Shown: positions 3,492-23,225 of the stretch, piece after piece
Numbering within the stretch: position 1 is the first letter of the stretch
Layout: each line of letters opens with the position of its first letter
Virus record (IMG/VR): IMGVR_UViG_3300033067_001448
Location: 1 to 32,772 of that record
Direction: 5' to 3' (one strand)
DNA: 32,772 nucleotides
From: a virus
Taxonomy: Duplodnaviria; Caudoviricetes
Translations under genes and position numbers: made by a program
The notes under the pieces: generated by a model
Seen by the model: only the letters and a program-made list of their open reading frames with translations
What the model was told of the DNA's origin: nothing
The model's database searches: none

Positions 3492-4876
3492 CCCCTCCCC
3501 TGCGCGATTACCAGTGGGCGATCGTCGAGCACATCGTCCGCCACGGGCGGGCCAACATCTGGGCCGGCATGGGCACGGGCAAGACCGTGTCGACGCTGAC
3601 CGCCTTGGACTTCCTGCTGAACGACATGGGCGAGGACGGCCCTGCCCTGGTGCTGGCGCCGCTGCGCGTGGCCCAGTCGACCTGGCCCACCGAGGTGGAG
3701 AAGTGGCCGCACCTGCGCCGGCTCACCGTGTCGGTGATCGTGGGCACGCCGGCCGAGCGCAAGGCCGCGCTGGCGGTCAAGGCCCAGGTGTACACCATCA
3801 ACTACGACAACCTCGAGTGGCTGGTCGAGCACCTCGACGCCGCCTGGCCCTTCAAGATCGTGATCGCCGACGAGGCCACCCGGCTCAAGAGCTTCCGCAT
3901 CACCCAGGGCGGCAAGCGCGCCGGGGCCTTGGGCAAGGTGGCCCACACCCGCGTCGAGCGCTTCTACAACCTCACCGGCACGCCGGCGCCCAACGGCATG
4001 GTGGACCTGTGGGGCCAGGCCTGGTTCCTCGACCAGGGCAAGCGTCTCGGGCGCAGCTACGCCGCGTTCGAGCAGCGGTGGTTCGCGTGGAAGAAGCGCG
4101 ACACCAAGGACCGCTTCGCCAAGGACATGGTGCTGATGGAGGGCGCGCAGAAGCAGATCGAAGGCATGCTGCGCGACCTGACCATCACCGTGCGGGCCAG
4201 CGACTTCCTGGACCTGCCGGCGCTGGTCGAGAACGTGATCGAGGTGGACCTGCCGCCGACGGCGCGCCGCCACTACCGGGAGCTCGAGCGCGAGATGTTC
4301 ACCCGCCTGGCCGAGGGCGATGAGGTCGAGGCGTTCAACGCCGCCGGCAAAACGATGAAGTGCCTGCAGGCCGCCAACGGCGCCCTGTATCTCGAAGACG
4401 GATCAACATGGAAGGAGATCCACGATGCAAAAATTGAAGCTCTACAGTCCGTGGTGGAAGAGGCTGCTGGGGCGCCCGTCTTGGTGGCCTACCATTTCAA
4501 GAGCGACCTCGATCGGTTACGACGTGCGTTCCCAGGAGGACGAGTTCTCGACGCTGATCCGAAAACAATTTCGGATTGGAATGCTGGTCGTGTACCGCTC
4601 CTCTTCGCTCACCCAGCGTCTGCCGGGCACGGTCTTAACCTCCAGGATGGCGGCAACATCCTCGTCTTCTTCGGCCTCTGGTGGGACCTCGAACAGCACG
4701 AGCAAATCATCGAACGGATAGGGCCCACCCGTCAGGCCCAGTCCGGTCACAACCGCCCGGTGTACGTGCACCGGATCGTAGCCCGCAAGACCGTGGACGA
4801 GCTGGTGCTCGCCCGGCTGCAGACCAAGGCCTCGGTGCAGTCGCTGCTGCTCGAGGCGATGAAAGGACAGCGATGA
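3488..4876 (+). CDS. SNF2-family helicase
   Basis: LRDYQ (Q motif), GMGTGKT (Walker A), IADEA (Walker B), LTGTP, HPASAGHGLNLQ, QIIERIG. GTG start overlaps the upstream TGA. Confidence 0.93.
   Translation: MTPPLRDYQWAIVEHIVRHGRANIWAGMGTGKTVSTLTALDFLLNDMGEDGPALVLAPLRVAQSTWPTEVEKWPHLRRLTVSVIVGTPAERKAALAVKAQVYTINYDNLEWLVEHLDAAWPFKIVIADEATRLKSFRITQGGKRAGALGKVAHTRVERFYNLTGTPAPNGMVDLWGQAWFLDQGKRLGRSYAAFEQRWFAWKKRDTKDRFAKDMVLMEGAQKQIEGMLRDLTITVRASDFLDLPALVENVIEVDLPPTARRHYRELEREMFTRLAEGDEVEAFNAAGKTMKCLQAANGALYLEDGSTWKEIHDAKIEALQSVVEEAAGAPVLVAYHFKSDLDRLRRAFPGGRVLDADPKTISDWNAGRVPLLFAHPASAGHGLNLQDGGNILVFFGLWWDLEQHEQIIERIGPTRQAQSGHNRPVYVHRIVARKTVDELVLARLQTKASVQSLLLEAMKGQR
4425..4721 (+). CDS. Candidate overprinted gene (+1 frame) inside the helicase, 98 aa
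   Basis: AAGGAG at 4412-4417, ATG at 4425. Helicase codons switch to A/T endings roughly over this interval. Confidence 0.5.
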   Translation: MQKLKLYSPWWKRLLGRPSWWPTISRATSIGYDVRSQEDEFSTLIRKQFRIGMLVVYRSSSLTQRLPGTVLTSRMAATSSSSSASGGTSNSTSKSSNG

Positions 4877-5148
4877 CCGACATCACCCAGACCCTCACCG
4901 AGCGCGGCAAGCGCTACGGCACCTTCACCGGCCACGCCGACGTGACGCAAAAGCTGAAGGACGTGATCCGCAGCGAGCTCGGCACGCGCGGCAAGGTGCT
5001 GGCCCCCGACCAGATGGAAGCGCTCGAGATGGTCTGCCACAAGATCGGCCGCATCGTGAACGGCGACCCGGACTACGACGACAGCTGGGTGGACATCGCC
5101 GGCTATGCGAAGTTGGTCGCGGATCGCTTGCAGGGTGTCGTGCGCTAG
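4873..5148 (+). CDS. DUF6378-like phage protein, 91 aa
   Basis: ERGKRYGTF...HKIGRIVNGDPDYDDSWVDIAGYAKL; ATGA overlap. Confidence 0.85.
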   Translation: MTDITQTLTERGKRYGTFTGHADVTQKLKDVIRSELGTRGKVLAPDQMEALEMVCHKIGRIVNGDPDYDDSWVDIAGYAKLVADRLQGVVR

Positions 5149-5167
5149 TGCATCCTGCACCAGACCG

Positions 5168-5293
5168 CAGCAAGTGCTAGTGCCGTTGCGAGCACGATGC
5201 GAAGCCTAAGTAGTTGTCAGGCTTTAGCAAACGCGACGGTCACAATATACATTATGCGCACCCGAACGAGGGTTTTCCCTGTAGCAGACGCTA
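5168..5293. promoter_or_regulatory. Cluster of three palindromic operator-like sites (TAGCAnnYGCTA)
   Basis: CAGCAAGTGCTA 5168-5179, TAGCAAACGCGA 5225-5236, TAGCAGACGCTA 5282-5293; fourth copy at 2172-2183. Confidence 0.6.
5235..5262 (-). other. dif-like XerCD recombination site (putative attP)
   Basis: Minus strand GGTGCGCATAA-TGTATA-TTGTGACCGTC versus E. coli dif GGTGCGCATAA-TGTATA-TTATGTTAAAT: XerC arm 11/11, spacer 6/6, XerD arm 4/11. Intergenic. Confidence 0.88.
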
Positions 5294-5320
5294 AGATTTC
5301 CTGTACACTCTGCTCCATCG
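5269..5320 (+). promoter_or_regulatory. Putative early promoter B
   Basis: AGGGTTTTCCCT-N23-TACACT-CTGCTCCATCG upstream of ATG 5343; parallels 2147-2200. Confidence 0.6.
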
Positions 5321-5342
5321 ACTCACCAACCGGACCTGCAAA

Positions 5343-5534
5343 ATGACTCTGATCCAAGCCCAGCAGCAGTACATCGACCGGGCCCTGCGCGCCCACCCCG
5401 GTCACCAGCGCCGCGTGCGCAACGCCGCTGCCGCCGAACTGAAGCAGTGGGCCGCCAAGCACGGCATGGACCCGGTCGTGGTGCACAAGGACGCCCGCGA
5501 CATGCTGGAACTTGAACTGGCGTGCGAAGAATGA
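5343..5534 (+). CDS. Hypothetical protein, 63 aa
   Basis: First ORF after promoter B; typical codon usage. Confidence 0.7.
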   Translation: MTLIQAQQQYIDRALRAHPGHQRRVRNAAAAELKQWAAKHGMDPVVVHKDARDMLELELACEE

Positions 5535-5803
5535 CTGAGGTCGACCGGCTCCAAGAGGTGGCGCTGCTCGTCAGTGAGGCCATCCGTTTGGTTGACGACA
5601 TCGCCAGCCAAGACCGGATCCAGTACACACCGACCTACCGCAACTTGCTCGAGCACGGTCACAAGGGCACCCGCAAGAAGACCCTTGGCGACGCCAAGCG
5701 TGAAGCTCGGCAGGTGGCGACCCTCCTGCGCCGGGCTTGGGAGATAGCCGACCCGAGCAGCGAGCAGCGCCTGCTGGAAGCCCTCGGCCCCTGCGGCAAG
5801 TGA
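5531..5803 (+). CDS. Hypothetical protein, 90 aa
   Basis: ATGA overlap with the upstream ORF; helical-looking composition. Confidence 0.65.
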   Translation: MTEVDRLQEVALLVSEAIRLVDDIASQDRIQYTPTYRNLLEHGHKGTRKKTLGDAKREARQVATLLRRAWEIADPSSEQRLLEALGPCGK

Positions 5804-5898
5804 CCACCCCTCGGCCACCAGCCATTGAACAATAACCCGCGTTACACGCACTACAACCCGCGCCTGCCCGCAGTGTGGGCGGCGCTGAAAGGATGAAG

Positions 5899-6210
5899 AT
5901 GAGCGAACTGACCAAGGCCGACCTGAAGGTGGGCCGCGTGTATTCGGCCAAGCGGCCGGCCGTCGTCGGGCTGTTTGACCCGCTGGTCAACGACCGGCAG
6001 ATCCTGTGGATGGACAGCTTCGGCGTGCACGTCCAGTACGACAGCCCGACCGTCGCCCTCGGCCGCAAGCACCCCAAGGTCACCGTCGAGCAGTTCCTGC
6101 GCTGGGCCAAGGCCGACGTGACCGACCTCTGCCCGAAGGGCGAGTGGCGCGCACCGCCGCGTGCACAAAGCACCCCGCAACCCCCTGCCCCGCCGGCAGA
6201 TCACCTCTGA
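5899..6210 (+). CDS. Hypothetical protein, ~103 aa
   Basis: AAAGGA upstream of the ATG (alternative start 5893); typical codon usage. Confidence 0.7.
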   Translation: MSELTKADLKVGRVYSAKRPAVVGLFDPLVNDRQILWMDSFGVHVQYDSPTVALGRKHPKVTVEQFLRWAKADVTDLCPKGEWRAPPRAQSTPQPPAPPADHL

Positions 6211-6224
6211 CCAGAAGGCTGATT

Positions 6225-6425
6225 ATGCGAACCAGAGAGCACGCCGGGCACACCTACGAGGACCAGATGCACTCCGGTGTCGACGACCGGCTGCAGTTCC
6301 GGGTGTGGCCTGACGGGACCGTCCAGTGCGTCGACGAGCAGCCCGAGCCCTACCCGTGGATGTCCGACGACTTCCAGGTGGTCTGGGCGATGGACGAGGA
6401 CGAAGCTCGTGCCAGCGCCGCCTGA
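6225..6425 (+). CDS. Hypothetical acidic protein, 66 aa
   Basis: AGAAGG upstream of ATG 6225; G/C-ending codons. Confidence 0.6.
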   Translation: MRTREHAGHTYEDQMHSGVDDRLQFRVWPDGTVQCVDEQPEPYPWMSDDFQVVWAMDEDEARASAA

Positions 6426-6834
6426 CCTTCTGGAAGTCAACCGCTTGCCCCAGAAGCACCTGCGCCTGCTGCTGGACGCCGAAGGCCAGCGGCGCGTCGA
6501 GCGCCTGCTCAACGTCCACCGCACCACCGTGCGCCGCTGGCTCGACGGCAGCGTGAAGATCCCGGGCGCGCAGCACCTGGCGATCCGCTACCTGCTGGGG
6601 GATCTGCCGGGCACCGACGGGCAGTGGGTGGGGTGGAGATTCAGCCACGGCGAGCTCGTGACCCCGGGCGGTGACCGGTTCACCCCGGGCGAGGTGCAGG
6701 CGATCCGGCTGCAACAGCAGCGGGCCCGCATCCTGACGCAAGAACTGCTGGAACTACGCACCCGCATCAAGGTGCTCGAGCGCACCCTGGACCAGGTCGG
6801 CATGGCCGCCAACCAGGAACAGGCGCACGCCTAG
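6409..6834 (+). CDS. HTH + DUF3653-like protein; XafT-like Xer activation factor candidate, 141 aa
   Basis: GAGGA at 6396-6400 then GTG at 6409. HTH-like VERLLNVHRTTVRRWLDG..IP, then WVGWRFSHGELVTPGGDRFTP (DUF3653-type) and a C-terminal coiled coil. Confidence 0.75.
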   Translation: MPAPPDLLEVNRLPQKHLRLLLDAEGQRRVERLLNVHRTTVRRWLDGSVKIPGAQHLAIRYLLGDLPGTDGQWVGWRFSHGELVTPGGDRFTPGEVQAIRLQQQRARILTQELLELRTRIKVLERTLDQVGMAANQEQAHA

Positions 6835-8560
6835 TACAGCACCCAGGTGCCGGGGCTACCGGCCACGGTGCACACCGTGCCGTTCTTGCCGGCGGCAAAC
6901 GTCAGGTGCTCGATCCGATCGCCCACCACCCAGGTGCCCGCCGTCGGTGTGGTGTCGGTCGAGAGCACCGTGCGCTGCGCGACGAAGTGCCCGCGCTCGA
7001 CGCCGTCGGCACCCCACACGCGGTTGACCGGCAGGATGTCACAGCCCGAGAGCTTGGTCGTGATCGCGGCCGCCGCGCTGTTGTTGCGGAAGAGGCGAAT
7101 GAACCCGTAGTCGGTCGAGGTCATCAGGCTGTAGCCCACCCCGCCCGTCTTCACGCTGAACACGTGGCAGTTCTCGATGACCGGGGCCGTGGGCCGCGTG
7201 ACCGTCGAGAGCAGCAGGCCGTTGGTCTGGGTCGTCTCACTGGCCGCCGTGCGGTGGCCGAACAGAACCCCGTCCACGCGCGTGCGCAGGCAGTTCTGCA
7301 GGCACACCCCTGCCGGCCCACTGAAACCACCGTCCTGGCCGTTCTGGAAGCAGTGCGTGCCCGGCAGGATGACAACGTCCTCCGGCGGCGTGACGCCGTG
7401 GTGGATGTAGATGCCGTGGCCGCGGTTGCCCCAGAAGCGCCCGTGGATCTGGGCGCCGTAGGTCTTCTCGTCGACCAGGCACCCGTGCGCGTAGCCGCTC
7501 ACGTCGATGTCGGTGAAGCGGCCGCCGCGGATCTGGCGCACATCGAGGCCTGCCACCGCGCTCGCGCCGCCCGAGCCCTTGCCGGTGCAGCGTCGGATGC
7601 GCAGGTCCGTCTCGTGCAGCGGGTCGATCAGCGGCGTGTAGCCGCCCGCGTCGCCGACGTTGTCGGCGTAGCTGTCCACGCTCACCAGCCAGCCGTTGTT
7701 GGTGTTCTCGACCGCGACGCCGTCGATCACGATGCCCTTGCAGCGCAGCGGCTTGATGGCAGCCGGCGCAAACTCGAACCCGCAGTCGCCCGCGGTCACC
7801 TTGATCGCGCCGTAGGTCACCGACTGGATGCGCACGTTCTCGACCCGCACGTTGTAGACGCCCGAGAGGCGCACGCCGAAGCTGCCGACGTCGATGCCGC
7901 CCTTGGCCCGGGTCAGCGCGCCGCCGCGGATGTTGCGGATGACGATGTTGTGCGGGTGCGTGGTGTAGGCCGTGCCCGCGTTGAACGCGGTGCGGCTCGC
8001 CGGGATGTCGCCACTGTTGACCGCGCCCACCGTGCCCCAGTCGAGGTGCACGCAGCCGGTGACGGTGGCGCTGTCGGGTACGTTGATGTTCTCGATCAGG
8101 CCGTTGTTCGCGCCACCGATGACCTGGATCGCCACCTTGCCGTCGCGGCTCGTGGAGAGCGTGAGGTCGCGCGCCGACCAGCCGGTGACGCCCTCGTCGG
8201 GGCTGATGCTGGCCGTGGTCGGGCTCTCGCCGTACAGCGCACCGATCAGCAGCGGCGCGTGGATGCCGGCCTGGCTGCCAGGCGAGCCGCCCGAGACCAC
8301 GTTGATCGTGCCGTTGCGCACGTGCGCGCGGTTGCGCAGGCGCACGCCGAAGTCGCTGGCGCCGGTCAGGTTGAAGGTCAGCGTGGCGCCGCCCAGGTCC
8401 AGTGTGACGTCGTCCTTGACGATCACGCCCGCGGTCAGCGTCAGGTCAGTGCCGCCGAGCCAGACCGTGCCCCGCCGTTGGCGTTGGCGACGTCGATCAG
8501 GGTCTGCAGGTTCTCGGTCGGCGAGACGCCGATCATGTGGGGCGCAATACGGCTGGTCAC
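6831..8560 (-). CDS. Second tailspike/depolymerase (beta-helix), interrupted by a 1-nt frameshift near 8470
   Basis: AAGGGAG+GTG at 8560 gives ...LQTLIDVANANGG, which continues as GTVWLGG...VIVKDDVTLDLGG only after a frame change. The rest is a 531-aa G/N/V/I-rich repetitive beta-strand sequence ending P.AGTWVVGD...C..AGSPGTW. Confidence 0.75.
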
Positions 8561-8570
8561 AATCTCCCTT

Positions 8571-8960
8571 TCAGCGGGCCACGCCCTTGATCTTCTCGGT
8601 GGTTCGCAGCGCACCCAGGCCCAGCATGCCCATCAGCACGGGCAGCATCTCGGTGAGATCCGCCGGCGACAGGGTGAGCGCCGGGCCGCCCAGCACCAGG
8701 AGCAGCGCCTTCACGACCGGCAGCCCGATCCAGTTCCACGCGCACGCGGCGCCGCAGACCCAGCCGATGAACGGCCGCCAGCCTGCGACGAACACGCTCG
8801 AGCTCGCGGCCTCGGCCTGGTTGACCGCGAGCTGACCCTGCACGACGACCAGCGCCGCCTGCAGCTCGGCCTTCTCCTGCTCGCTCTTGTTGGGCCAGAT
8901 GCGGTCGATGGCCTTGCCGGCCAGGTCCGCTACGGCGCCGAGTCCAGTCAAGTCGCTCAT
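8571..8960 (-). CDS. 3TM holin (GTA-holin-like), 129 aa
   Basis: NQAEAASSSVFVAGWRPFIGWVCG...GMLGLGALRTTEKIKGV; ATGA-coupled to the endolysin. Confidence 0.88.
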   Translation of the reverse strand: MSDLTGLGAVADLAGKAIDRIWPNKSEQEKAELQAALVVVQGQLAVNQAEAASSSVFVAGWRPFIGWVCGAACAWNWIGLPVVKALLLVLGGPALTLSPADLTEMLPVLMGMLGLGALRTTEKIKGVAR

Positions 8961-9427
8961 GCGGTCCTCGTCAGGTTGGCGGCGATGCGCTTGGCCCAGC
9001 CGCGGCCAAAGCTCGGCCAGGTCGGCAGGTCCGCCATGTAGGCCAGGCGCGCGCCGTTGATGCGGGCGTGCAGCACCAGCGGGTTCATGGCCTTCACGGC
9101 CAGGCGCGTCTTCGGGCCGAGCTTGCCGTCGGCCTCGGCGAAGCACGCGCGCTGGATCATCTTGACCGCCGTGCTGACGCCGCTGTTCACGGCCACGTCG
9201 AACACGTCAAAGCGGATCGCCTCGGGCCACTCGTTGCAGCCGGCGGGTTCCCAGTAGTCGCGGGCGTAGATGAGCTTGGCGCGGTCCAGCGTGAGGTTCT
9301 TGATGTCCTCGTTGGGATAGGCGCGCTTGCTGATGCCGTACTTGGTCTCACCGCCCGGGTCTTGGGGGTGGTTGACGTAACCGCCCTCGTGCCCGATGAG
9401 CGCCTCGAACGCTTCGTCGTAGGTCAT
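8957..9427 (-). CDS. Endolysin, glycoside hydrolase family 108 with peptidoglycan-binding C-terminus, 156 aa
   Basis: HEGGYVNHPQDPGGETKYGIS, FDVAVNSG, DGKLGPKT, FGRGWAKR. Confidence 0.93.
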   Translation of the reverse strand: MTYDEAFEALIGHEGGYVNHPQDPGGETKYGISKRAYPNEDIKNLTLDRAKLIYARDYWEPAGCNEWPEAIRFDVFDVAVNSGVSTAVKMIQRACFAEADGKLGPKTRLAVKAMNPLVLHARINGARLAYMADLPTWPSFGRGWAKRIAANLTRTA

Positions 9428-9636
9428 TTGCCGAGCACCTTGAAGTGGTCGATCACCCAGGCGAGGATCGCGCCCGCGAACACCAGGCCGCTGTTGAACA
9501 TCCACAGCCCACCCTTCCCCTGGTTCGCCATCTCGAGCAGCGTGTCGACCTTGGTGCCGATGGTTGCCACCTGAACTTTGAGGGCGTTGACTTCGCCGCG
9601 CAGTTCGCCGAATTCGACGGGGTCGATGTTGCTCAT
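9424..9636 (-). CDS. Small coiled-coil + single-TM protein (holin/antiholin-like); start uncertain (9636 or 9687)
   Basis: FGELRGEVNALK...LLEMANQGKGGLW followed by a hydrophobic segment; ATGA overlap with the endolysin. Confidence 0.7.
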   Translation of the reverse strand: MSNIDPVEFGELRGEVNALKVQVATIGTKVDTLLEMANQGKGGLWMFNSGLVFAGAILAWVIDHFKVLGK

Positions 9637-12468: not shown

Positions 12469-15400
12469 TCACCGCACCTTGGACTCGGGGCTGGCCGTGC
12501 CCGTGACGAGGCCACGCGTCAGGTCGACCGGGCCGGTCGGGTTGATCTTCCCGTCGGCCACGCCCGCGGCGTAGCCCACCGGGCGCGCCAAGCCCGACAC
12601 CGGCACGCCGGTCGCCACGCTGACCAGGGTCGCCACGTCGCGCACGGCCTTCTGTGCGCTGCCCTCGCCCGCGATCGCCTTGTAGACCGACTCGGGCGCG
12701 CCGACGGCGGACTCGAGCAGACTGATGGCCGGCGACAGCGATATGCGGTCGTCCATCGGGTTGCCGTTCAGGCGGTTCATGCCGGCCACCGCGAACTGAC
12801 CCACGATCGGGATCTGCGCCAGCAGGCCCTTGGCCGTGCCGAAGCCGAACACGGCCGCGAGCCAGTCGTCGACCAGCTGGCCGTCCTTGTCCTCGTCGTC
12901 GGGCCCACCGCGGAACGCCTGGGCGATCGCCTCGGCCACCCAGATGGGGGCCATCAGACCCATCATCACCACGTAGAACGCCTTGCCCGCGCCCTTCTTC
13001 AGGCCCACCTCGCTGGCGATCTGCTTGAGCGCCGTGCCGTTGGTGTTCGCCATCATGTTGAAGTAGCCCACGAACTGCGTGAACACGCGGGCGTAGGCCG
13101 GGCCGGTCTCGAGGCGGCTGACGTCCTCGGGCAGCGTGCTGCCCTGGGTCTGGCGCACGGTGCCGTCGGCGAACTTGATCGCGTCGGTGTCGCTCATGCC
13201 CTCGGCCAGCGCCTGGTTGTAGGCACCCGTCCACACGATCGGCGAGAGCACGTTGTCGAACGCGGTCTGCAGGAAGTAGGCGTGGCGCATCGACCAGGAC
13301 TGGGTGCGCTGGTACACGCCCGGCTTGATCAGGATGTCCTGGAACTGCTCGTTGAGCACGGCCACCTCGTTGGTTGCGCGGTCGGCCATGTAGGGCGACA
13401 GGTCCCACACGGTCTTGCTGACCTGGATGGGGGCTGCCACGTACTGGGCCAATGCGCGCATCAGATGCGCAGGCTGAATGCGCACGGCGGCTGTGGACAG
13501 GCCGGTGATCTGCTGGATGGTGTTGCTGACGTTGGCAAACATCAGCGCCATGCCGGCGCGCGCACGGATGATGCCCGGGATGCGGGCCCACTTGCCGGCG
13601 CCGATGACTGGCTCCTCGACGACCTGCTGCGCGCTGCGCTGCAGCCACGGTTGCAGCATCGTCTCGATGGCCGCCGGCTGCACGCGGTTCAGTGGCTGGC
13701 CGACCAGCTTGTTGGTGAGCAGCTTGCGCACGCCGCGGGTGGCCGGCGTCATGTGCGCAAACAGCAGCACCTTGTCCAGGTGCTGGCTCAGGGTGCGCAG
13801 GTCCAGCATCAGCGGGCGGTTGTAGCCCTCGACGCGGGACATCGTGAAGCCCTTGGCCGGTTGCGGGAAAGCGAAGGCCATGGAGTTGTTCTCCTCCTCG
13901 GCCAGCTTCTTGAGCTGGTTGTCCTTCACCAGGCGCGAGTCGACCTGCGCCGGCACGTAGCCGCCGCGGCGCGCGACGCCGAACGGGTCCACAAAAGCGT
14001 CGGCCGTGACCTCGCTGAAGTAGCGGCCGAACACGTCGCGGTGCGTCTTCTGCGCCAGGGGCTTGGTGTCCTCGAGCAGGTCCCACACGCCCTGGACGAA
14101 GTCCATGTGTGCGCGCTCGAGCTTGCCCTCGTTGACCAGGCGCTGCACGAACGCGTCCCACTTGCTGGTGTCGAGCTCACCGTTGGGCCCCTCCACCGCC
14201 CAGCCACGGCCGACCAGGAGCTTGCGCTTGTTGCTCTCGTTGCCGGTGTGCAGCAGCGCGTGCAGGATCTCGTTCATGGCGGTGCCCGCCGACGAGCCGG
14301 GCGTGCCGAAGGTGTAGCCGAGCTCTGGCGCGTCGATCACGCTGTCGCCGACGATGGGCGCCAGGTTGTCGACCAGGGCCTGGAAGCGCTTGCGGTAGGC
14401 GGCGCGGTCCTTGCGGTAGCGATCGGCCGCGTCCTTCACCGGCTGGAACACGTAGCGCAGGAAGGGCCCGCCGTACTTGCCGTCCATGCCCTCGGCCCAC
14501 TGCTCGACGCGGCGCAGGAACGCGACGCCCTGCTTCAGGAACAGGCCGCGCTCTTCTTCCTTGGTGACCGCCATGCCCTCGCCGGGCACGCGGTCAGGGA
14601 TGCCGATCTCCTCGAGCCGGTCGGCGATCTCGCCGGCCAGGTCGTCGATGTCCAGCAGGTCGCCGTCGATCTCGAGCTGACGCGAGCGCTTCGCCAGATA
14701 CCACATGCCCTGGATCTGCTCGTGCAGGCCGACCAGCTCGTCGAAGGTCAGCGACAGGATCGGCTGCGCGTTCTCGCTGACCGCGGCCACCATCGGCTCG
14801 ATGGCCGCCCAGGTGTCGGGGTCGTTGCGCTTCACCGCCTCAAGGTACGCGGCCGCGCTCTTGCTGGCCGGCGACTGCAGACCGTAGAGCTGCAGCACCG
14901 CGCGCGCAGCGTTGACGATGTCGGCGTCGCGGCCCTTCTCGACCACGGTCTCGTCGTTGCCCTTCAGCACGCGGGCAAAGAACTCGAGGATCTTCTTGCC
15001 CTCGGCGCGCGCATCCAGCGCAGCCTTGGCGGCGGCGTTGTTCAGCACCTGGTCCTGCTTGGCGCGCACGGCCTCCTCGGTCTTGCCGGCGGCCGTGGCC
15101 TCTTGCCACTTCTTGGCGGCGCGGCGCTCGGCGGCAGTGTGCTGCCAGGCCTTGGCCTTCAGATCTTGCAGCGTCGTCTTGCCGACGACGTTGGCGGCGA
15201 ACTGCTTGGCGGCGGTCATCAGCACGCTGACCGTGACCTTGCTGCCCTTGGCGTTCACCTCGCCGGTGTCCTGTCGGGTGCGCAGCATCTCGGCCTGCGT
15301 GCGCAGCTCGGATGCGAGGCTCCGCGAGCGGGCCTCGTTGTGCACGGCCTCGTTCGCGGCTTCCTTGATCGCGTCCTCGTTCATCAGGTCGCCGTGCTCC

Positions 15401-18400
15401 TCGAGCATGCGTTGCTCGGTGCGCGCGTCGATGTAGTCCTGCTTGCTGCCGAAGGCGGCGATCGACTCCAGCATGTCGTTGACCGACGGGTAGCCGAAGC
15501 TGTCGGCCACGGTCGCCATGTCCTCGTCGTTCATGTTGACCGGGCGCGCGGGCTTCGGGTTGGCGCGGTCCCACTCGATCAGGAACGCGTCGACCTTGTT
15601 GGCGATCTCGCGCTTGTTCTTTGCCAGGAGCTGGCCCTTCTGCAGGCCCTTCGCGTCCGGGTTGGCGTCGTAGAGCTCGGCCACCAGGCGCGCACGCTCG
15701 TCCTTGGCCGCCGTGTCGCGCTCGGTCTTCCAGGTGTCGAGGATGCCCTGGTACTCGGGCGTGATCCGCAGCGCGTCGAGCGCGGCCTTGGCACGCATCT
15801 CAGGCTGCTGGTTGGCCTCGACCGTGACCTCCTCCATGATCGCCTTGCGGATGCTGGCGGCCTTCTTCTGCAGCTCGCGGATGACCTTGTCGCGCGCCTT
15901 CACCGTCCACTTCAGGTCAGCCATGCTGCGCTTGCGCAGGCGCTCCTGCGCCTCGGCGTCGGCCGTCTCGTCGGGCACCATGCCGGCGGCCTCGTTGGCC
16001 TGAGCGATCTGCTCGTCGGTGGCGAGCATGCGGTCCATCACGCGGCGGATGTCGTCGTTGATCTCCGGGCGCTGCTCGGCCGGCAGCCGGGCAAGGAACG
16101 CCTTGATGCTGCCGTAGACCGACTTCAGCCAGGCCGAGAAGCGGCGCATCAGCGGCGCGAGCTCGGCGTTGGGCACCTTGCCCTCCATGACATAGGCCTC
16201 GACGAAGCGGGCCCACTGCTCGTGGTAGTTGCGCTTGTCGTTCAGCGCGAAGCCGCGCCACTGCTCGTCGGTCACGCCGAACTGCTTGAGCACCGTCTGC
16301 CAGTCGGCGACGATCTGCGCCGGGGCATTCGGCTGCGCGGCCACGTCGGCCAGCACCTCGAGGAAGAAGTGCCCCATCTCGTGCCACAGCGTCGAGAGGT
16401 CTGCCTCGGGGTTCAGCACCAGCTCGAGCGTGCTCGGGCTGAAGGTGCCGCGGGGGCCTTGATAGAGCTCGCCCGTCTTCTGCACGTCAGCGCCGTCGAA
16501 GATGACGAAGTTGCGGCTCTTGCTCTTGGCCTGCGCGCCGCGCGAGCCGGCGTCGAGGTAGCGCAAGCCCGGCACGCCGGCGTCGCGCAGGGCCAGGCTG
16601 GCGGCCTTGTCGCTGCCGAGCTTGCGGGACAGGAACTTGTAGGCGCGCTCCCCCGTCAGGTCGGACGGGCGCGACACGATCTTGCCGTTGAGGTTCATCA
16701 CGCGGATGCCGGCCTGTGCGTCTTCCCGCGTGTTGTACGCGGCGAGCACCTGGCCGTCGGGCGACTTGACCTCGAACGTCGTCATCGGCACGCCGAGCTT
16801 TTCGAGCGCAGCCTGCACCTTCTCGGGCTGGTCCTTGAGCTGCGCGTCGTAGTCCAGCAGGTCGCTGTCCTCGGGGACCTCGACGGTGTAGGTCTGGCCC
16901 TTGGGCGCCAAGGCGTCGATCTGCTTCGTCACCTCGTCGAGGCGCTTCTGCTTGCGGTCGATGAGGCGCTGCTGCTTCTTCGGGTCGACGGGGTCCAGCT
17001 CAAAGCCATCGCGCTGCTCGGGGGATACCGAGACGATGCGGCCCTTAGCGTCCTTCTGGACCCACTGCCCGCCCGCCTCAAGAATCCGGCGCTCGCGGTT
17101 GACCTGGTTGGTGAGCGTGCGCTGTTCCTGGAGCAGCGGCTGCGCTTCTTCAGGGAGGTTCGCCCGCGAGAGCGTCTCGCGATAGAACTCGGCGATGCCC
17201 TTCGACTCGGCGAAGTACAGCCCCCAGCCGTAGGCCTGAGCGCCCTCGCCGGTGCCGATCTTCTCGGTGCTGAACTGCTCGATGCCGCGGTGCGGCGTGC
17301 CGTGGTAGGCGGCCTGCTCCAGCACACCGCTGTCGGCGTCCGGTGCGCGCCCTTCGGTCCACGTCCACTCGGGCATCAGCCCGGTCTTCTGGTCGGCGAA
17401 GACCGTGTCCTCGACCTTGGCGGTCTGGTTGGCCTCGCCGTTGGGGCCGTAGTTCAGCCAGCTGTTCTGGCCGCGGGTCTCGCTGGTGATGGCGCCGACG
17501 GCCGGGCCGGTGAACAGGCGCACGTGCGCCTGCCAGGCGTTCTCCTCGCCACGCGCACGGAAGCCCGCGCCCTCGAGGCCGTGGCCGAAGGCGTCGTGCA
17601 CTGCGCGGAACAGGTCGTTGAAGAGCACGCGCTTCTTCGGGCCGTCGGGCGTGCCGTAGCCCCACTCGAGGCCGGTGTCGGCCAGCAGCGGGTTGTCGCT
17701 GACGTCGAGGTCACTCGAGCCGAAGCCCGCCTCGGTGGCGAACACGCCCATGGACTGGTTGGCCCGCAGGTCGCGCATCGCGTTCCACGGGTTACCGGCG
17801 TAGGGGTCGTTGGTCTCGTCGACCAGGTAGAACACGTAGCCGGCGCGCTGCAGCGCCAGGTACTGGGCCAGCGTCTGCCGGGCCAGGTCTTCGTACGCCT
17901 CCTTGACCCGCGGGTCGTTGGGGGCGTGCTGCATCTCCTCGTAGGCCGCAGCGATGCGGCGAGCGCGGTCCTCGTCTACTTGGACGAACGCGCCTTGGCG
18001 CTTGAGGTCGATGCCGGCTTCGAGGGCGTACTGCTCGGCGACAGCGACAAGGCGGGCGTCGGGGCCGGTTGCGCCTTCAACAAGCGGCGCACCTTCAAGC
18101 GGCGCAAGGCTTCCGCTCGAATACCGTCCTGCTCCGTCTCCGGTCGGTTGGGGTCGTCCATCGGTCAGGCCTCCTTGTTCGAGGGTGCCGGCGTTGCGCT
18201 GCTCGCGGAGTCGCTCGAGCCGGCGGGCGGCTTGGAGCTGGAGGCGTCGTTGATCTTCTGGAGCAAGCGCAGTTGCTTCTGCGCCAGCTCCGGCTGCTTG
18301 ACCAGCGTCGCCTGCAGCAGGTCGCTCATCAGATCGGAGGGCGTCGAGTTGGTCGGCATAGCCGGCCTCCTTCAGGATGTCCGCGTATGCGGGGTCGTTG

Positions 18401-21400
18401 AACAGCGAGCTGAAGTCAGGCGTGGCGTTGATCAGCTCGTCGGTCAGCTTACCCTCTTGCAGGGCGCGCGTCGCGGTGAGGTCGCCCACCTGCAGCTCGT
18501 ACACCGTCTTGGCCCAGGACCAGACGGTCTCCTGCACCTCGGCCGGCGTCCAGGTCTCGCCGGTCATCTTGGTCAGGAAGGCGGCCGCCTCGCGGGTGCG
18601 GGCCGACATCGCCAGGTAGCCCGAACCCTTGCCCGGGTCGGTGCCCAGCACGTTCATGGAACCGCTGAACATAACCTGGTCGACCAGCGCGTAGTTCGCC
18701 ATCCACGCGTCGTTGGTCACCTCGTCGGTCACGCCGATGAGGTTCAGGAAGAAGCTGTTGACCTTGGGGCCCGACAGCAGTACGCGCGAGGTCTCGGCAT
18801 CGCCGGGGTTGTCGGCGGTCAGCGCGCGCACGCTGTTGTTGATCCAGGCGTCGAGCACGCTGGCGCGGCCACGGCCGCCCTGCACGCTCTGGCCCATCAC
18901 GTCGATGATCGCCTCGCGCTCGGTCGGGCGGCCGGCGGCCACCCAGTTTTTCCACGTGTTGAGCGTGTTGAGCAGGTTGGTCTCGACCGAGCACTGCGGC
19001 GACAGCGCGGCCAGCAGCGCGGCGAAGCGCGGCGCGTCGGGGCCGAACACGGCGCTGATAGCCTCGGCCGACTGCTTGTACCAGCCACGCTTGGCCTGGC
19101 CGCCGAGCGCCACTGCGGCCATCTCTTTGGCCGACGGCAGCTTCTGGAGCTGGGCGATGATCTTGGCCGCCGTGCTGTCGGTGACCTTGCGCTGCTCCAT
19201 CGGCGTGAGCGCCTTCAGCAGCTTGCGCACCGCGGGCGTGACCGTCTTGACCCGGGACTGGGCCAGGGTGTCGGCGAGCTCGCGCACCTGCAGCTCGCCG
19301 TTCTCGATGCGGATCTCGTAGTTCTGCCAGGCGGGGTTGGCCTGCATGCGCTCCATGCGGGCCTGGAGCTGCTCGGGCGTGCCGCTGGCCTGGGTCTGCC
19401 ACTGCGGCTCGCGCGCGACGGGCGCCAGCACCTGGTCGGAGCTGATGTTGGTCTGCGCGCCAAGGAGCTCAGGCCGGAAGGTCTGCTGGCCGAGCATCAC
19501 CACCTGGCCGGGCTGCGTGCCCTCCATGCGGGTGGCGTAGCCCTTGTAGCCCATGTCGAGCAGCTTCGACTCGAACGCACGCGCGTCGGCCGTGCGCAGC
19601 TTCAGTGGGTCGGCGTCGGCGTCGTACACGCCGGTGAGGTTCACGCGGTGGGCACGCCCACCCACGCCGGCCTCGGGGCGCACGCCGGTGCCCTTGTCGA
19701 AGTAGAACGACAGGCGCTGGCGGATCCGTGGATCCGGGCTGTTCATGATCTCGTCGCGCGCGCTGCCCTTCAGGCCGGTGCCGTAGAACGCGGTCGACAG
19801 CAGCGAGCGGTCTTGCGTCGAGAAGTGGTAGCCGGTGACGCTGATCTCGCCCGGCTTGCTCGCCTCGAGCGCAGCGTCCTGCGTGCTGGCCTGCCCACGG
19901 ATCGCAAAGCCCTTGGCCTTGTAGGCGTCGTACAGACCCTGCGTGCCGAGGCCCGTGCGGGCGCCGTACGCGACGAAGAAGTGCGCCAAGCCGGCGGCGT
20001 AGGCCTCGGTCACGGCCGGTCGGTAGCGACCGGTGGCCGCGATCTGCTGGGCCAGGTCCTGCTGCACCGACTCGAACTCTTGCTGCGCGGCGGCCTGGTC
20101 CTGGGCCTGCTGCAGCACGCGCTGGGCATCCTGCTGCAAGGTCTCGGCGGCCTGCTGCGCCTCCACGCGCGTGATGCCGTCGGGCGTCAGGCGCGCGAAG
20201 TCGTTGAGCGTCTGCTCTAGTGGGGTGCCGGGGGCAACGGTGAGAACGTCCGCCATGGGGATCGACACTGTCGACCCGGCCGCCAGTGCGTCAGCGATCT
20301 GTTCTTGCACCGCCGGGGGTAGCTGCGCCAGAACGTCAGGGGGTAGCTGCGCCAGCACTTCAGCGTCGACATAGACCTCCTTCTTCGCGCCGTCGGTCTC
20401 GTTGACGACGCGCTCGGCGTAGGCGCGGAACTGCTCCGGGCTGCGCTGACGCAGCGCGGACTGGCCGGCTGCCTTCAGCATCTCTTGCAGGCGGTCCTGC
20501 TCGTAGACCAGCGCCTGGTCGGTGGCCTTCTCGACCAGCTTGTTGATGCCCTTGATGGTGGACGTCTGCACGCCCACGCCGACCAAGGTCGCGATCAGGG
20601 TCTGGTACGCCGCGTCGGGGCGCTCGGCGATGAACTGCGAGAGGGTCTTCTCGGGGTTCAGGTTGACCCACTCGTTGAAGTCCTGCGCCAGCGTGGTGAG
20701 CTGCTCGGTCGGCAGCTCGGTCAGCGCCTGGTTGCGCAGCGTCTTCATCAGCGAGGCGTTGGCCGCCAGGTCGCCGAAGAGCTTGCCCGCCGGGATCTTC
20801 TCGAACACGAACTCGAAGCCGCCCTGGGTCAGGCCGAAGGCGGTGGACTGGGCCTTGCCTCCTCCGGCCTCGCGTAGCTGGAAGTAGGCGTCAGCACCCA
20901 CGCCCGTGGCCTGGATGCCCGCCACAGCGGTGGCTGCAGCTTCAGCGGTGGCGAAGAGCCCGCGCGACAAGCCGGCCGGCAGCAGGGCCAGGTTCGTGCC
21001 CGCGCTACCGAGGCCCGACTTGATGCCCTGGCCGGTGCTGCTTTCAGGCTGCAGGCCGAAGGACTGGCGCGCGCTGCGCGAGTCGTTCGCCATGTTGCGC
21101 ATGTCGCGCGCACCGGACTCCCAGCCGACCAAGTCGTAGGCCATGCCGGTGATGTTGAAGATCAGCTCGCCCACGCCGGCCGTGGCGCCGAGGCCCAGGT
21201 CGACGGCGGCCTTGGGCGCGTCGGACGACAGGCTGTTGGGGCCGGCGCCAGTCAGGTACTGAAACGTGCCGTTGACCGCGCGCTCGATCTTGGTGAGCAC
21301 GGGGATGTCGTCGCTCGCGACCGTGGTGAAGTTCGGGTCGACGAGCTGGCGGGCGAGAACGGGCGAGTCTTGCGCCATGCGGACCAGGTCGATAGCCCGG

Positions 21401-21666
21401 GCCCGCTCCTTGATGCGCACCTCCTCGAGGTTGCGCTCGACCACACGCAGCGGCAAGCCGCTGGTCTTGCTCAGGCGCTGGCGCTCGGCCGCGATCTCGG
21501 GGTCGTCCTTGAGTGCGAGCTCGATGACGGCGCGAGCCTGCGCTTGCTGCGCCTTGGCCTCCTCCTCGCGCCGACGTTTGAAGAACGCGTCCGCGCTATT
21601 GTCGGCGGGCACGGGTTCCGGGTCGGCTGCGCGTCGAGACGCAACGACCTCGTCAGTGTTGATCAT
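12469..21666 (-). CDS. Giant internal virion/ejection protein with polyvalent enzymatic domains, ~3065 aa
   Basis: ATG at 21666 overlaps the upstream TGA; third ejection-protein position. Contains YHGT..GTGEGAQAYGWGLYF (ART-PolyVal-like), HEMGH and HDAFGH (metallopeptidase-like), and WY..LSPQ..GPKV..F..N..DAWM blocks. Confidence 0.88.
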   Translation of the reverse strand: MINTDEVVASRRAADPEPVPADNSADAFFKRRREEEAKAQQAQARAVIELALKDDPEIAAERQRLSKTSGLPLRVVERNLEEVRIKERARAIDLVRMAQDSPVLARQLVDPNFTTVASDDIPVLTKIERAVNGTFQYLTGAGPNSLSSDAPKAAVDLGLGATAGVGELIFNITGMAYDLVGWESGARDMRNMANDSRSARQSFGLQPESSTGQGIKSGLGSAGTNLALLPAGLSRGLFATAEAAATAVAGIQATGVGADAYFQLREAGGGKAQSTAFGLTQGGFEFVFEKIPAGKLFGDLAANASLMKTLRNQALTELPTEQLTTLAQDFNEWVNLNPEKTLSQFIAERPDAAYQTLIATLVGVGVQTSTIKGINKLVEKATDQALVYEQDRLQEMLKAAGQSALRQRSPEQFRAYAERVVNETDGAKKEVYVDAEVLAQLPPDVLAQLPPAVQEQIADALAAGSTVSIPMADVLTVAPGTPLEQTLNDFARLTPDGITRVEAQQAAETLQQDAQRVLQQAQDQAAAQQEFESVQQDLAQQIAATGRYRPAVTEAYAAGLAHFFVAYGARTGLGTQGLYDAYKAKGFAIRGQASTQDAALEASKPGEISVTGYHFSTQDRSLLSTAFYGTGLKGSARDEIMNSPDPRIRQRLSFYFDKGTGVRPEAGVGGRAHRVNLTGVYDADADPLKLRTADARAFESKLLDMGYKGYATRMEGTQPGQVVMLGQQTFRPELLGAQTNISSDQVLAPVAREPQWQTQASGTPEQLQARMERMQANPAWQNYEIRIENGELQVRELADTLAQSRVKTVTPAVRKLLKALTPMEQRKVTDSTAAKIIAQLQKLPSAKEMAAVALGGQAKRGWYKQSAEAISAVFGPDAPRFAALLAALSPQCSVETNLLNTLNTWKNWVAAGRPTEREAIIDVMGQSVQGGRGRASVLDAWINNSVRALTADNPGDAETSRVLLSGPKVNSFFLNLIGVTDEVTNDAWMANYALVDQVMFSGSMNVLGTDPGKGSGYLAMSARTREAAAFLTKMTGETWTPAEVQETVWSWAKTVYELQVGDLTATRALQEGKLTDELINATPDFSSLFNDPAYADILKEAGYADQLDALRSDERPAAGDAGQAAGAGAEATALAPEDQRRLQLQAARRLERLREQRNAGTLEQGGLTDGRPQPTGDGAGRYSSGSLAPLEGAPLVEGATGPDARLVAVAEQYALEAGIDLKRQGAFVQVDEDRARRIAAAYEEMQHAPNDPRVKEAYEDLARQTLAQYLALQRAGYVFYLVDETNDPYAGNPWNAMRDLRANQSMGVFATEAGFGSSDLDVSDNPLLADTGLEWGYGTPDGPKKRVLFNDLFRAVHDAFGHGLEGAGFRARGEENAWQAHVRLFTGPAVGAITSETRGQNSWLNYGPNGEANQTAKVEDTVFADQKTGLMPEWTWTEGRAPDADSGVLEQAAYHGTPHRGIEQFSTEKIGTGEGAQAYGWGLYFAESKGIAEFYRETLSRANLPEEAQPLLQEQRTLTNQVNRERRILEAGGQWVQKDAKGRIVSVSPEQRDGFELDPVDPKKQQRLIDRKQKRLDEVTKQIDALAPKGQTYTVEVPEDSDLLDYDAQLKDQPEKVQAALEKLGVPMTTFEVKSPDGQVLAAYNTREDAQAGIRVMNLNGKIVSRPSDLTGERAYKFLSRKLGSDKAASLALRDAGVPGLRYLDAGSRGAQAKSKSRNFVIFDGADVQKTGELYQGPRGTFSPSTLELVLNPEADLSTLWHEMGHFFLEVLADVAAQPNAPAQIVADWQTVLKQFGVTDEQWRGFALNDKRNYHEQWARFVEAYVMEGKVPNAELAPLMRRFSAWLKSVYGSIKAFLARLPAEQRPEINDDIRRVMDRMLATDEQIAQANEAAGMVPDETADAEAQERLRKRSMADLKWTVKARDKVIRELQKKAASIRKAIMEEVTVEANQQPEMRAKAALDALRITPEYQGILDTWKTERDTAAKDERARLVAELYDANPDAKGLQKGQLLAKNKREIANKVDAFLIEWDRANPKPARPVNMNDEDMATVADSFGYPSVNDMLESIAAFGSKQDYIDARTEQRMLEEHGDLMNEDAIKEAANEAVHNEARSRSLASELRTQAEMLRTRQDTGEVNAKGSKVTVSVLMTAAKQFAANVVGKTTLQDLKAKAWQHTAAERRAAKKWQEATAAGKTEEAVRAKQDQVLNNAAAKAALDARAEGKKILEFFARVLKGNDETVVEKGRDADIVNAARAVLQLYGLQSPASKSAAAYLEAVKRNDPDTWAAIEPMVAAVSENAQPILSLTFDELVGLHEQIQGMWYLAKRSRQLEIDGDLLDIDDLAGEIADRLEEIGIPDRVPGEGMAVTKEEERGLFLKQGVAFLRRVEQWAEGMDGKYGGPFLRYVFQPVKDAADRYRKDRAAYRKRFQALVDNLAPIVGDSVIDAPELGYTFGTPGSSAGTAMNEILHALLHTGNESNKRKLLVGRGWAVEGPNGELDTSKWDAFVQRLVNEGKLERAHMDFVQGVWDLLEDTKPLAQKTHRDVFGRYFSEVTADAFVDPFGVARRGGYVPAQVDSRLVKDNQLKKLAEEENNSMAFAFPQPAKGFTMSRVEGYNRPLMLDLRTLSQHLDKVLLFAHMTPATRGVRKLLTNKLVGQPLNRVQPAAIETMLQPWLQRSAQQVVEEPVIGAGKWARIPGIIRARAGMALMFANVSNTIQQITGLSTAAVRIQPAHLMRALAQYVAAPIQVSKTVWDLSPYMADRATNEVAVLNEQFQDILIKPGVYQRTQSWSMRHAYFLQTAFDNVLSPIVWTGAYNQALAEGMSDTDAIKFADGTVRQTQGSTLPEDVSRLETGPAYARVFTQFVGYFNMMANTNGTALKQIASEVGLKKGAGKAFYVVMMGLMAPIWVAEAIAQAFRGGPDDEDKDGQLVDDWLAAVFGFGTAKGLLAQIPIVGQFAVAGMNRLNGNPMDDRISLSPAISLLESAVGAPESVYKAIAGEGSAQKAVRDVATLVSVATGVPVSGLARPVGYAAGVADGKINPTGPVDLTRGLVTGTASPESKVR
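17976..18161 (-). CDS. Nested +1-frame small gene B in the giant gene, 61 aa
   Basis: AAGGAGG at 18170-18176, ATG 8 nt downstream; the host frame uses rare A/T-ending codons here. Confidence 0.6.
   Translation of the reverse strand: MDDPNRPETEQDGIRAEALRRLKVRRLLKAQPAPTPALSLSPSSTPSKPASTSSAKARSSK
18165..18359 (-). CDS. Nested +1-frame small gene A in the giant gene, 64 aa
   Basis: AAGGAGG at 18366-18372, ATG 6 nt downstream. The nested frame uses genome-typical codons (CTG CTG CAG GCG ACG CTG GTC AAG CAG CCG GAG CTG). Confidence 0.68.
   Translation of the reverse strand: MPTNSTPSDLMSDLLQATLVKQPELAQKQLRLLQKINDASSSKPPAGSSDSASSATPAPSNKEA
20217..20372 (-). CDS. Candidate nested +1-frame ORF, 51 aa
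   Basis: AAGGAGGT at 20375-20382 (short spacing); local A/T-ending codon patch in the host frame ends at the nested TAG. Confidence 0.35.
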   Translation of the reverse strand: MSTLKCWRSYPLTFWRSYPRRCKNRSLTHWRPGRQCRSPWRTFSPLPPAPH

Positions 21667-23225
21667 CGCCCATTGTCGAGGTTGCCCTCGCTTTGCGTGT
21701 TTTTCTGCCGCTGGTATTCCAGCCAATCCTCGACCACGGACTGCATCGAGGGCGGTTTGCCCGCCGCGCGCAACGATGCCTCGGCCCGGCTGCGGAACCA
21801 CGGCGGGACGACCGACACGTCGACTCGCTTGCCTTGCACGTTGACGTAGGCGTTCTTGAACTCGTCGGGCGTGAGCAACGCACGCGGCTTATTCGGGTCG
21901 CGGCCGAACTCGTCGACGTAGACCTTGTCGAGCGCGACTTCGTCGACGACCTTCTGCTCCTCGTCGGGCGTGAGCTTCTTGCCCTTGGCCGTCGACGCTG
22001 CGCGCAGGCGCCGGTCAATCTCGTTGGTGAGCGCCAAGGCCTCCTCGGGGCGCTTCTTGGGGTCGATGCCCAAGCCTTTGATCGCCGCCTCGGTGCGCTG
22101 TTGCGTGGTGTACAGCGAGTCCTGCTCGGCGGGCTTCTTGGCCTGGTTCATCAGGTCCGACAGCGAGTCGAGCTGGCCGAGGGCCACGCGGTCCTTGAAC
22201 TGCGTGAGCTGCGCGGGGTCGGTGATCTCGCCCTTGGAGATGGCCGAGCGCAGCGCCAGGTACGTGGCTGGGTCGGTTTTGATCGACTCGCCCTTGGCCT
22301 CCGCGCGGTCGGCCTTGATCTGCGCGTTGATGGCGCGCTGCACCTCGGCGGCGGCGTTCGGGTCGAGCGCGGCCAGCGCGTTGATCTCGGCCGTCTTCGG
22401 GTACTGCCGGCGCGCGACAGCCAGCATCAGGTTGCCCTGCGCCGACTGGATGATCTTGGTCTTGGTCTTGTCGGCCTCGATGTCGATCATGTCCATCACG
22501 CGCGTGCGGTCCTTGATCTCCATGCTGCCGCCGTAGGTGGCGAGGTATTCCTTCGCCGCCTTCGACGCTGCCGGGTCGGGGCGCCCGGCCAGCGACAGCG
22601 CCACCTGCGAGTGGAACGCCATGAGCTGTTCCTTCGCCATGGCAGGGCCGGCGTCAGGCACACCCTCGAGCGTGGCGTAGCGGATCGCGTTCTCGGTGAG
22701 CTTCTTCTCGAGGTCTGCACCGATCGCGATCGCGTTGGCCGGCGTGACGCTGGTCAGCGCCTCCTGCTGCAGGCTGCTTTGCAGCGTGCGGAAGTTGGTG
22801 TCGCGGGCACGCTTCTTCTCGCCCTCGACGTAGCCGAGGGTGTCGCCCACGGCCTGGCTCTGGTACTGGGCCAGCGAGCGCGTGGCGAGCCGGCGGGCCA
22901 GCGGCGACGCCTCGGCGCCGTACTTCTGCGGGGCCTGCGCCCACCACTCCTCGGCGGCGGCCTGGTACTGGTCGGCCTGCTCGCCCTTGTACTGCTCGCG
23001 CAGTTTGGCGCGGTGCTGCTGCCAGTCGTTGCGCAGCTGGGTCTCGAGCTTGAAGGCCTCGTCCTGGGCGTCGCGCTCGATCTTGCGTTCGACGACCTGC
23101 GCCACTTGGCCGAGGCCTTGGGCCAGCGCCTGCGTGCCGCTGGACACGTCGATGTTGCCCTGCATGGGCGTGCGCAGTTGCCCGCGCTCGATCTGCGGGC
23201 CGCCGTAGACGGGGATCTGTGCCAT
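21663..23225 (-). CDS. Internal virion (ejection) protein, 520 aa
   Basis: Helical A/Q/E/K-rich sequence, MAQIPVY start, position between the small and giant ejection genes. Confidence 0.75.
   Translation of the reverse strand: MAQIPVYGGPQIERGQLRTPMQGNIDVSSGTQALAQGLGQVAQVVERKIERDAQDEAFKLETQLRNDWQQHRAKLREQYKGEQADQYQAAAEEWWAQAPQKYGAEASPLARRLATRSLAQYQSQAVGDTLGYVEGEKKRARDTNFRTLQSSLQQEALTSVTPANAIAIGADLEKKLTENAIRYATLEGVPDAGPAMAKEQLMAFHSQVALSLAGRPDPAASKAAKEYLATYGGSMEIKDRTRVMDMIDIEADKTKTKIIQSAQGNLMLAVARRQYPKTAEINALAALDPNAAAEVQRAINAQIKADRAEAKGESIKTDPATYLALRSAISKGEITDPAQLTQFKDRVALGQLDSLSDLMNQAKKPAEQDSLYTTQQRTEAAIKGLGIDPKKRPEEALALTNEIDRRLRAASTAKGKKLTPDEEQKVVDEVALDKVYVDEFGRDPNKPRALLTPDEFKNAYVNVQGKRVDVSVVPPWFRSRAEASLRAAGKPPSMQSVVEDWLEYQRQKNTQSEGNLDNGR

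Follow-up and report, generated by a model that had tools for sequence, protein, structure and literature searches.

The stretch of DNA analysed here, which we refer to as the window, comprises all 32,772 nucleotides of the IMG/VR record IMGVR_UViG_3300033067_001448 and represents part of the genome of a podovirus of the BPP-1/BcepC6B/phiV10 type, as judged from domain content, gene order and capsid comparison. It encodes a portal, a GP7-type capsid, adaptor and nozzle proteins and internal virion proteins, and its polymerase-nuclease-helicase arm converges on the late arm as in other phages of this type. Terminase, primase and repressor genes were not found in the window, and its genome is therefore incomplete; terminase and primase are present in relatives, whose genomes measure 41-47 kb, and the missing part amounts to ~10-14 kb. 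The features that lie where the two arms meet are as follows.

3500..5148, plus strand: left flank, an SNF2-type helicase gene (start approximate) and a DUF6378 gene at the end of the replication arm (domain and family matches)
5218..5243, no strand: imperfect palindrome over the outer XerD arm, a candidate operator or hairpin (pairing across 17 sequences)
5235..5262, minus strand: dif-like attP, with the XerC arm at 5252-5262, the overlap at 5246-5251 and a degenerate XerD arm at 5235-5245 that keeps T1 and G5
5263..5342, plus strand: leader beyond the XerC arm, operator-like motif at 5279 (relatives have similar leaders after the site)
5343..5534, plus strand: cargo ORF of 63 aa, no family (other DNA in its place in one related contig)
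5531..5803, plus strand: cargo ORF of 90 aa, no significant family
5825..5852, minus strand: borderline candidate for a decayed Xer-like site of the second class (scoring 12.5, where 12 simulated windows reached 11.6 at most)
5899..6210, plus strand: cargo ORF of 103 aa, PHROG 9722 (function unknown; E 7.8e-35)
6161..6233, no strand: conserved element, a GTGC-N5-GCAC palindrome at 6161-6173 followed, with its XerC arm 62 bases on, by a second-class Xer-like site at 6206-6233
6225..6425, plus strand: ORF of 66 aa with its ATG within the second-class XerC arm, overlapping the start of xaf (weak PHROG 5116 match; homologues in L063 and L125)
6409..6834, plus strand: xaf, encoding a XafT-like protein of 141 aa with an HTH, one DUF3653 unit and a long C-terminal helix, a predicted Xer activator (PF12375, hhalign and pairwise alignment)
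6831..9505, minus strand: right flank, genes for a spike-like beta-helix protein, holin and endolysin at the end of the converging late arm (domain and family matches)

The first-pass annotation of this DNA had described a site flanked by phage genes in an incomplete genome whose window holds no integrase. We confirm phage genes on both the helicase side and the lysis and tail side, and no integrase family was matched among the 38 window ORFs scanned. Gene spacing suggests an operon that runs from the attP side to xaf; a search of 5100-6900 for a sigma-70 consensus promoter was negative. Elsewhere in the window, positions 12469-21801 of the minus strand encode an internal virion-type protein of 3110 aa that matches LPD22 and DUF7178 and, below threshold, ART-PolyVal.

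Read on the minus strand, the attP is GGTGCGCATAA TGTATA TTGTGACCGTC, and the 19 contiguous bases at 5244-5262 are identical to E. coli dif as given in the accessible text of PMC3603311. This agrees with the earlier description of the intergenic site, which is the sole dif match in the window at up to 3 mismatches, a match that 0/100 shuffles produced. The XerD arm had been called scrambled, which is accurate for its outer six bases, all of which differ from dif, but not for its inner five, of which four match dif including T1 and G5 (4/11 overall). Across 17 sequences, the palindrome over the outer part of this arm has 66.9% of its cells paired versus 36-49% after sliding, and RNAalifold returned no consensus structure for the palindrome region at the attP. 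On the other side of the site, the leader shows 65% ungapped identity to the leader behind the second site of a relative (L295). Palindromes and a TGCTA(A/C)AG-type motif lie beside the attP in the window (5218-5243 and 5279-5296) and at the same places in relatives; they recur elsewhere in complete genomes and are candidate operators or accessory sites.

The protein encoded at 6409-6834 matches DUF3653 (PF12375) with an E of 2.8e-10 and 40.6 bits (cut-off 22.4), and HTH models match it below threshold. It shares 29% identity over 94 aa with the VC1465-like protein of TLC-Kn1 (HM134800; pairwise E 2e-8), the profile of the xaf family aligns with XafT by hhalign at 92.9%, and P15 of fNo16, a non-tailed phage, is a homologue as well (4e-11). 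The initial call of a XafT-like HTH and DUF3653 protein thus stands, with XafT having two WxGW-type units and the window protein one. HM134800 was taken as the XafT reference because the pTLC record NC_004982 (L272) gave no XafT-like ORF by profile or Pfam. That gap fits the remark, in the accessible part of the preprint 10.64898/2026.06.12.731946, that XafT is a recent acquisition, or else reflects errors in the record. In an AlphaFold model (pLDDT 86.6), the HTH is accompanied by a small beta unit and one long helix. Likeness to XafT, which was to be checked by HMM and by structure, is borne out by the DUF3653 HMM. In a Foldseek search of the PDB, no match was significant and the best were XRE-type HTHs. 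In the BFVD, the only two significant matches are uncharacterised proteins of uncultured tailed phages.

The pairing of attP and xaf marks a clade of BPP-1/BcepC6B-type podoviruses. A scan of viral contigs with the single sequence found nothing and an alignment-based scan succeeded. The window protein has 96 homologue clusters (longest contig among them 47,362 bases), and an alignment of 61 of these fetched 104 loci. Nearly all long loci carry polymerase, nuclease and helicase genes followed by xaf, converging on lysis and tail genes. The interval from helicase to xaf is spanned by 72 of 100 loci (window included), and the site is present in 69 of the 72; after removal of duplicates, it lies between helicase and xaf in 51 of 53 distinct relatives. 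Its position is always upstream of xaf, in many cases 48 bases from the start of that gene, and its XerC arm always points toward xaf. The exceptions without a standard site are L020 and L041/L086, the latter having a variant overlap. Each of six whole records holds exactly one full-overlap site, beside xaf. Among sister loci selected by helicase, 17/17 have neither xaf nor site in this slot. In a quick helicase tree, 41 xaf-bearing rows form one well-supported branch, and four loci that span the slot without the module (L128, L129, L131 and L133) nest among the xaf-bearing phages. When clade loci were instead selected by site, 34 of 44 had an intact xaf, 6 ended too early and 4 (L291, L312, L336 and L338) kept the site with xaf broken or absent. 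No cultured tailed phage was found with the xaf gene or the site region.

According to the accessible text of Miele et al. (PMC9226527), XafT-driven integration tolerates almost any XerD arm that has G at the fifth or T at the first innermost position, and the fifth-position G is crucial. We counted G5 among clade sites that had been chosen on the XerC arm and overlap only, a choice in which G5 played no part. It occurs in 30 of 31 distinct XerD arms, which are related to one another, so the count does not represent 31 independent trials; for comparison, the canonical base is present in 15 arms at position 1, in 12 at position 3 and in 3-9 at positions 6-11. Eight of nine XerD-arm families are G5 throughout, and G5 is unchanged even in those sequences (6 of 17) whose palindrome partner base does not pair. 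The non-tailed phage fNo16 (MH730557) has the same layout, with the site upstream, the XerC arm toward the P15 gene and G5 in place, whereas only 14 of 22 degenerate XerD arms of bacterial elements have G5. The site had been predicted to be a TLC-type attP, in which XerC arm and overlap match dif and a degenerate XerD arm keeps G5, and this plan is conserved in the clade.

Beyond what the first-pass annotation had read from this DNA, we find that the site also acts as an array of gene cassettes and that the operon contains a Xer-like site of a second class. Directly repeated copies of the site surround small gene cassettes in 8 of 53 distinct relatives, and two or three directly repeated full-overlap sites are present in 13 loci (10 distinct), where they bound modules of 0.4-1.4 kb. 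One array is cut by the contig end (L094), leaving 9 distinct arrays with both ends in view. In seven of these, the outermost site matches single-site phages at 92-100% identity on its XerD flank and is foreign on its XerC flank, and the innermost site is the opposite, with 85-97% identity to single-site phages on its XerC flank and a foreign XerD flank; the other two (L034 and L048) have no close single-site phage for comparison. We read this flank pattern as the probable trace of circle insertion at the site. Sister genomes tell a similar story, as an empty and a filled genome (L079 and L080) agree at an identity of 0.98 to the left of the outer site and of 0.99 to the right of the inner site, L295 and L302 share 689 identical bases up to a divergence that begins in the XerC arm, and L337/L338 and L311/L291 switch sequence at the site in the same way. 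Because sister genomes switch at the site and repeated copies bracket cassettes, the attP is an active crossover point where relatives gain and swap small genes; the expectation of crossover at the site in nature is upheld by the array flanks and by the L079/L080 and L295/L302 pairs. Cassette leaders are 50-76% similar to the phage leader, so short-homology recombination may account for single events. The ORFs between or after the sites (57 scanned of 66 listed) include 4 Mom-like genes, 6 methyltransferases and 2 tgt-like genes, and most have no family. One family of cassettes (in L015, L018, L025, L026, L032, L080, L094 and L338) has a common XerD-side end of 90-180 bases with a small inverted repeat, and its exact site pattern was found in 8 IMG/VR contigs only, all of this clade. 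Genes on the helicase side of the attP recur inside full-overlap cassettes of other phages (L021/L026 and L071/L080).

The second class of site is represented in the window by 6206-6233, which on the minus strand reads GGTTCGCATAA TCAGCC TTCTGGTCAGA and receives a score of 30.4 from a matrix built on 23 sites in other phages, versus a maximum of 11.6 in 12 simulated windows. In the 26 distinct sites of this class, the XerC arm is intact and the overlap varies; the XerD-like arm has G5 in 20 of them. The TTATGCG of the XerC arm usually starts an ORF beginning MRT. In 16 of 25 contexts, a palindrome of the GTGC-N5-GCAC type is present 61-62 bases upstream, and its commonest exact pattern was found in 4 IMG/VR contigs only, all of this clade. 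L001 equals L002 up to the second-class site and differs beyond it; by eye, other pairs break at the palindrome rather than at the site. An attC-like hairpin is not consistently present at these sites (mean folding z -0.8 and -0.4 for the two strands, with 5 and 3 of 25 below -2). We regard the class as a candidate Xer substrate. In L021, L033 and L071, sites of the second class are present on the helicase side of the attP, too.

Integrons, which rely on an IntI integrase and attC hairpins, accumulate mostly one-gene cassettes at a single site. The arrays of this clade likewise grow at one site from mostly one-gene units, and second-class cassettes begin at the crossover arm; unlike integrons, there is no IntI (no PF00589 in relatives) and no consistent attC-like hairpin, and full-overlap cassettes carry their own leader. 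The pdif modules of Acinetobacter plasmids hold accessory genes between Xer sites that have near-canonical arms and alternate in orientation. Accessory genes are bounded by Xer sites in both cases, but the clade sites share one orientation, have defective XerD arms, are located in phages and neighbour an activator gene.

The temperate podoviruses BcepC6B, BPP-1 and phiV10 share gene order with the window, have capsids 48-53% identical to its own and likewise possess a divergent repressor pair. In BcepC6B, the slot between the helicase and lysis genes holds that phage's own site-specific integrase; here, the attP and xaf module sits in that slot instead, as had been predicted. Integrases were expected to be missing from complete relatives as well, and neither the tyrosine integrase family PF00589 nor the resolvase family PF00239 was found in the records of 19 relatives, 17 of them at least 90% complete. 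Five terminal-repeat records had no PF07508 and no ParA-type PF13614. Integrase absence carries little weight as evidence, because 4/5 xaf-less sisters also have no PF00589. The repressor-like pair predicted for complete relatives is clear in three of five complete records, and one partner is present in the other two.

With a copy of dif beside a relative of XafT in the slot of an integrase, entry via host XerC/XerD is likely, and we consider it probable that this clade of integrase-less podoviruses lysogenises through recombination of the attP with chromosomal dif by these host enzymes. In the accessible text of PMC6744903 and PMC9226527, XafT of TLC activates XerD without FtsK and promotes integration at dif. 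By analogy with TLC, XerC would bind the intact arm of the phage attP, the phage Xaf protein would activate XerD independently of FtsK, and crossover would occur within the 6-base overlap common to attP and dif. After integration, the xaf end would again have a functional dif and the helicase end a site with a defective XerD arm, where the poor arm would be expected to hamper FtsK-driven excision, again as in TLC. The regenerated dif would next take up small circular cassettes, and these would exit with the prophage on excision, as in the joint excision of TLC and CTX; this would give rise to the arrays of relatives with one good XerD arm at each step. Cassette entry may proceed via the regenerated dif in this manner; direct insertion into the free attP would give the same sequence outcome. 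We predict XerCD-dependent, FtsK-independent and XerD-first recombination by the clade, the order being uncertain because XafV, a structural relative of XafT, acts on a XerC-first path according to the accessible part of 10.64898/2026.06.12.731946. More tentatively, and as a possibility that falls somewhat short of an even chance, the clade may have swapped its integrase for a Xer activator and turned its attP into an integron-like cassette platform run by host XerCD, in which several cassettes are anti-restriction DNA-modification genes and sites are of two classes, i.e., full-overlap sites and variable-overlap sites with a start codon in the XerC arm.

Prophages of this clade were sought in several ways. 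Scanning 185,579 species genomes for the pattern yielded 4 loci, all outside this clade, and profile searches of overlapping samples of 401, 159, 317, 14, 5, 9 and 311 genomes, in which the best 10-26 candidates per genome were scored for the large sets, gave distant homologues only (best E 9.5e-18). A portal search of 400 class-level genomes (1 unscored) gave two matches at 48-49%, neither with xaf or the helicase. Among IMG/VR stretches with a canonical dif, 120 of ~340 were examined and held no clade prophage, and no host junction was found in the contigs of four sequencing runs, contigs being prone to drop rare forms. The site-selected clade loci all have phage DNA on either side, with no integrated copy. 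Prophages could be missing because the hosts are uncultured and because prophages are lost when genomes are binned. The testable sequence predictions were all borne out, and the first-pass annotation is thus partly supported: its central claim, lysogeny at the host dif, was not observed, as no integrated copy was found in the genomes and contigs searched. We infer lysogeny at dif, whereas the site, the gene, their fixed linkage and the switching of sequence at the site are observed directly.

What the bacterial searches did recover were distant xaf homologues, with a canonical dif within ~1.5 kb at 21 of 38 loci and the XerC arm of that dif usually toward the gene, as predicted for a prophage end; at 9 further loci, a canonical dif was nearby in 0/9. 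Elements of 1-2 kb in bacterial genomes (L263, L265, L269, L276, L277, L354, L356, L357, L360, L364, L366, L369 and L374) contain a distant xaf homologue flanked on one side by a canonical dif and on the other by a site with a defective XerD arm. In one bacterial family, 25 of 317 genomes match the xaf profile, and G1115 has three such elements in tandem.

The missing prophages, together with the cassette exchange seen directly at the site, would also fit a role for the site and xaf with host XerCD on free phage DNA only, in the capture and shuffling of cassettes or in resolving multimers of the circular replicon, with no normal integration, and the Mom-like, methyltransferase and tgt-like cargo would aid lytic growth. 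We judge this unlikely, though deserving of serious attention, as both partner sites would have defective XerD arms, the overlap is matched to the host dif even where helicases are only ~50-70% identical to that of the window, and the module occupies an integrase slot in phages that have repressor pairs and in which ParA was not found. It is considerably harder to credit that a small captured Xer element, consisting of xaf and its att site, rides in the phage and rearranges locally while being dispensable for the life cycle. The 1-2 kb elements at bacterial dif, the nested sisters without the module and the four of 44 site-selected loci with lost or broken xaf are in keeping with such a passenger; a captured element should have a site on each side of xaf, however, while the six whole records have their single full-overlap site, and the module has been kept across a deep clade whose xaf-bearing rows fall in one branch. 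That the site is a mere promoter or operator, its likeness to dif incidental, and the protein an HTH transcription regulator, as P15/XafT is labelled in the accessible text of PMC12715192, is very improbable despite the HTH, the frequent 48-base spacing and the adjacent promoter-like sequence and palindromes, given the 19-base identity to dif, the near-invariant G5, the genome switch points at the site and the homology to XafT through the DUF3653 unit.

Probable lysogeny through host XerCD places this clade alongside two known systems. The TLC satellite of Vibrio cholerae has the same attP plan, with an intact XerC arm and overlap and a poor XerD arm with T1/G5 (accessible text of PMC6744903 and PMC9226527), and shares the HTH and DUF3653 activator, with two DUF3653 units in TLC XafT and one in the window protein; the clade arrays resemble TLC/CTX joint excision. 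TLC, as described there, is a small rolling-circle satellite, whereas the window belongs to a tailed dsDNA phage with polymerase, helicase and lysis genes, whose integration is predicted. The dif-type double jelly-roll phages (PM2/NO16-like, including fNo16, MH730557) are, in the accessible text of PMC12715192, dsDNA phages with lysis genes and no integrase, as here, in which the XafT homologue P15 lies downstream of the XerC arm and adjoins a variable region, again as here. They differ in being non-tailed, in measuring ~10 kb and in having prophages documented at dif. Since Xer-exploiting dsDNA phages with a XafT homologue and lysis genes were already known from that source in non-tailed form, the new element in our findings is "tailed", not "dsDNA". 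No tailed Xer-exploiting phage was found in the literature searched, most subscription journals being beyond its scope.

Tailed phages are widely classed as lytic when they lack an integrase. If our reading is correct, a widespread uncultured clade would be temperate by a route that integrase-based lifestyle predictors miss, its prophages would hide at chromosome termini, and Xer exploitation, known from filamentous, micro- and jelly-roll viruses, would be extended to tailed phages. The dozens of natural activator/attP pairs would be available for the study of FtsK bypass by Xaf proteins, and the empty and filled sister genomes represent a site-specific route of accessory-gene gain in phages.

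Two further groups of dif-associated phage DNA came to light. In four unrelated tailed-phage contigs from IMG/VR (L162, L166, L169 and L190), a fully canonical dif lies next to or between terminase genes, with no xaf-profile match near it, and may reflect another use of Xer. In L156, L163 and L173, tape-measure and spanin genes (and an endolysin gene in L163 and L173) end ~200 bases from a canonical dif of the enterobacterial type, and these represent tailed prophages or remnants that abut dif.
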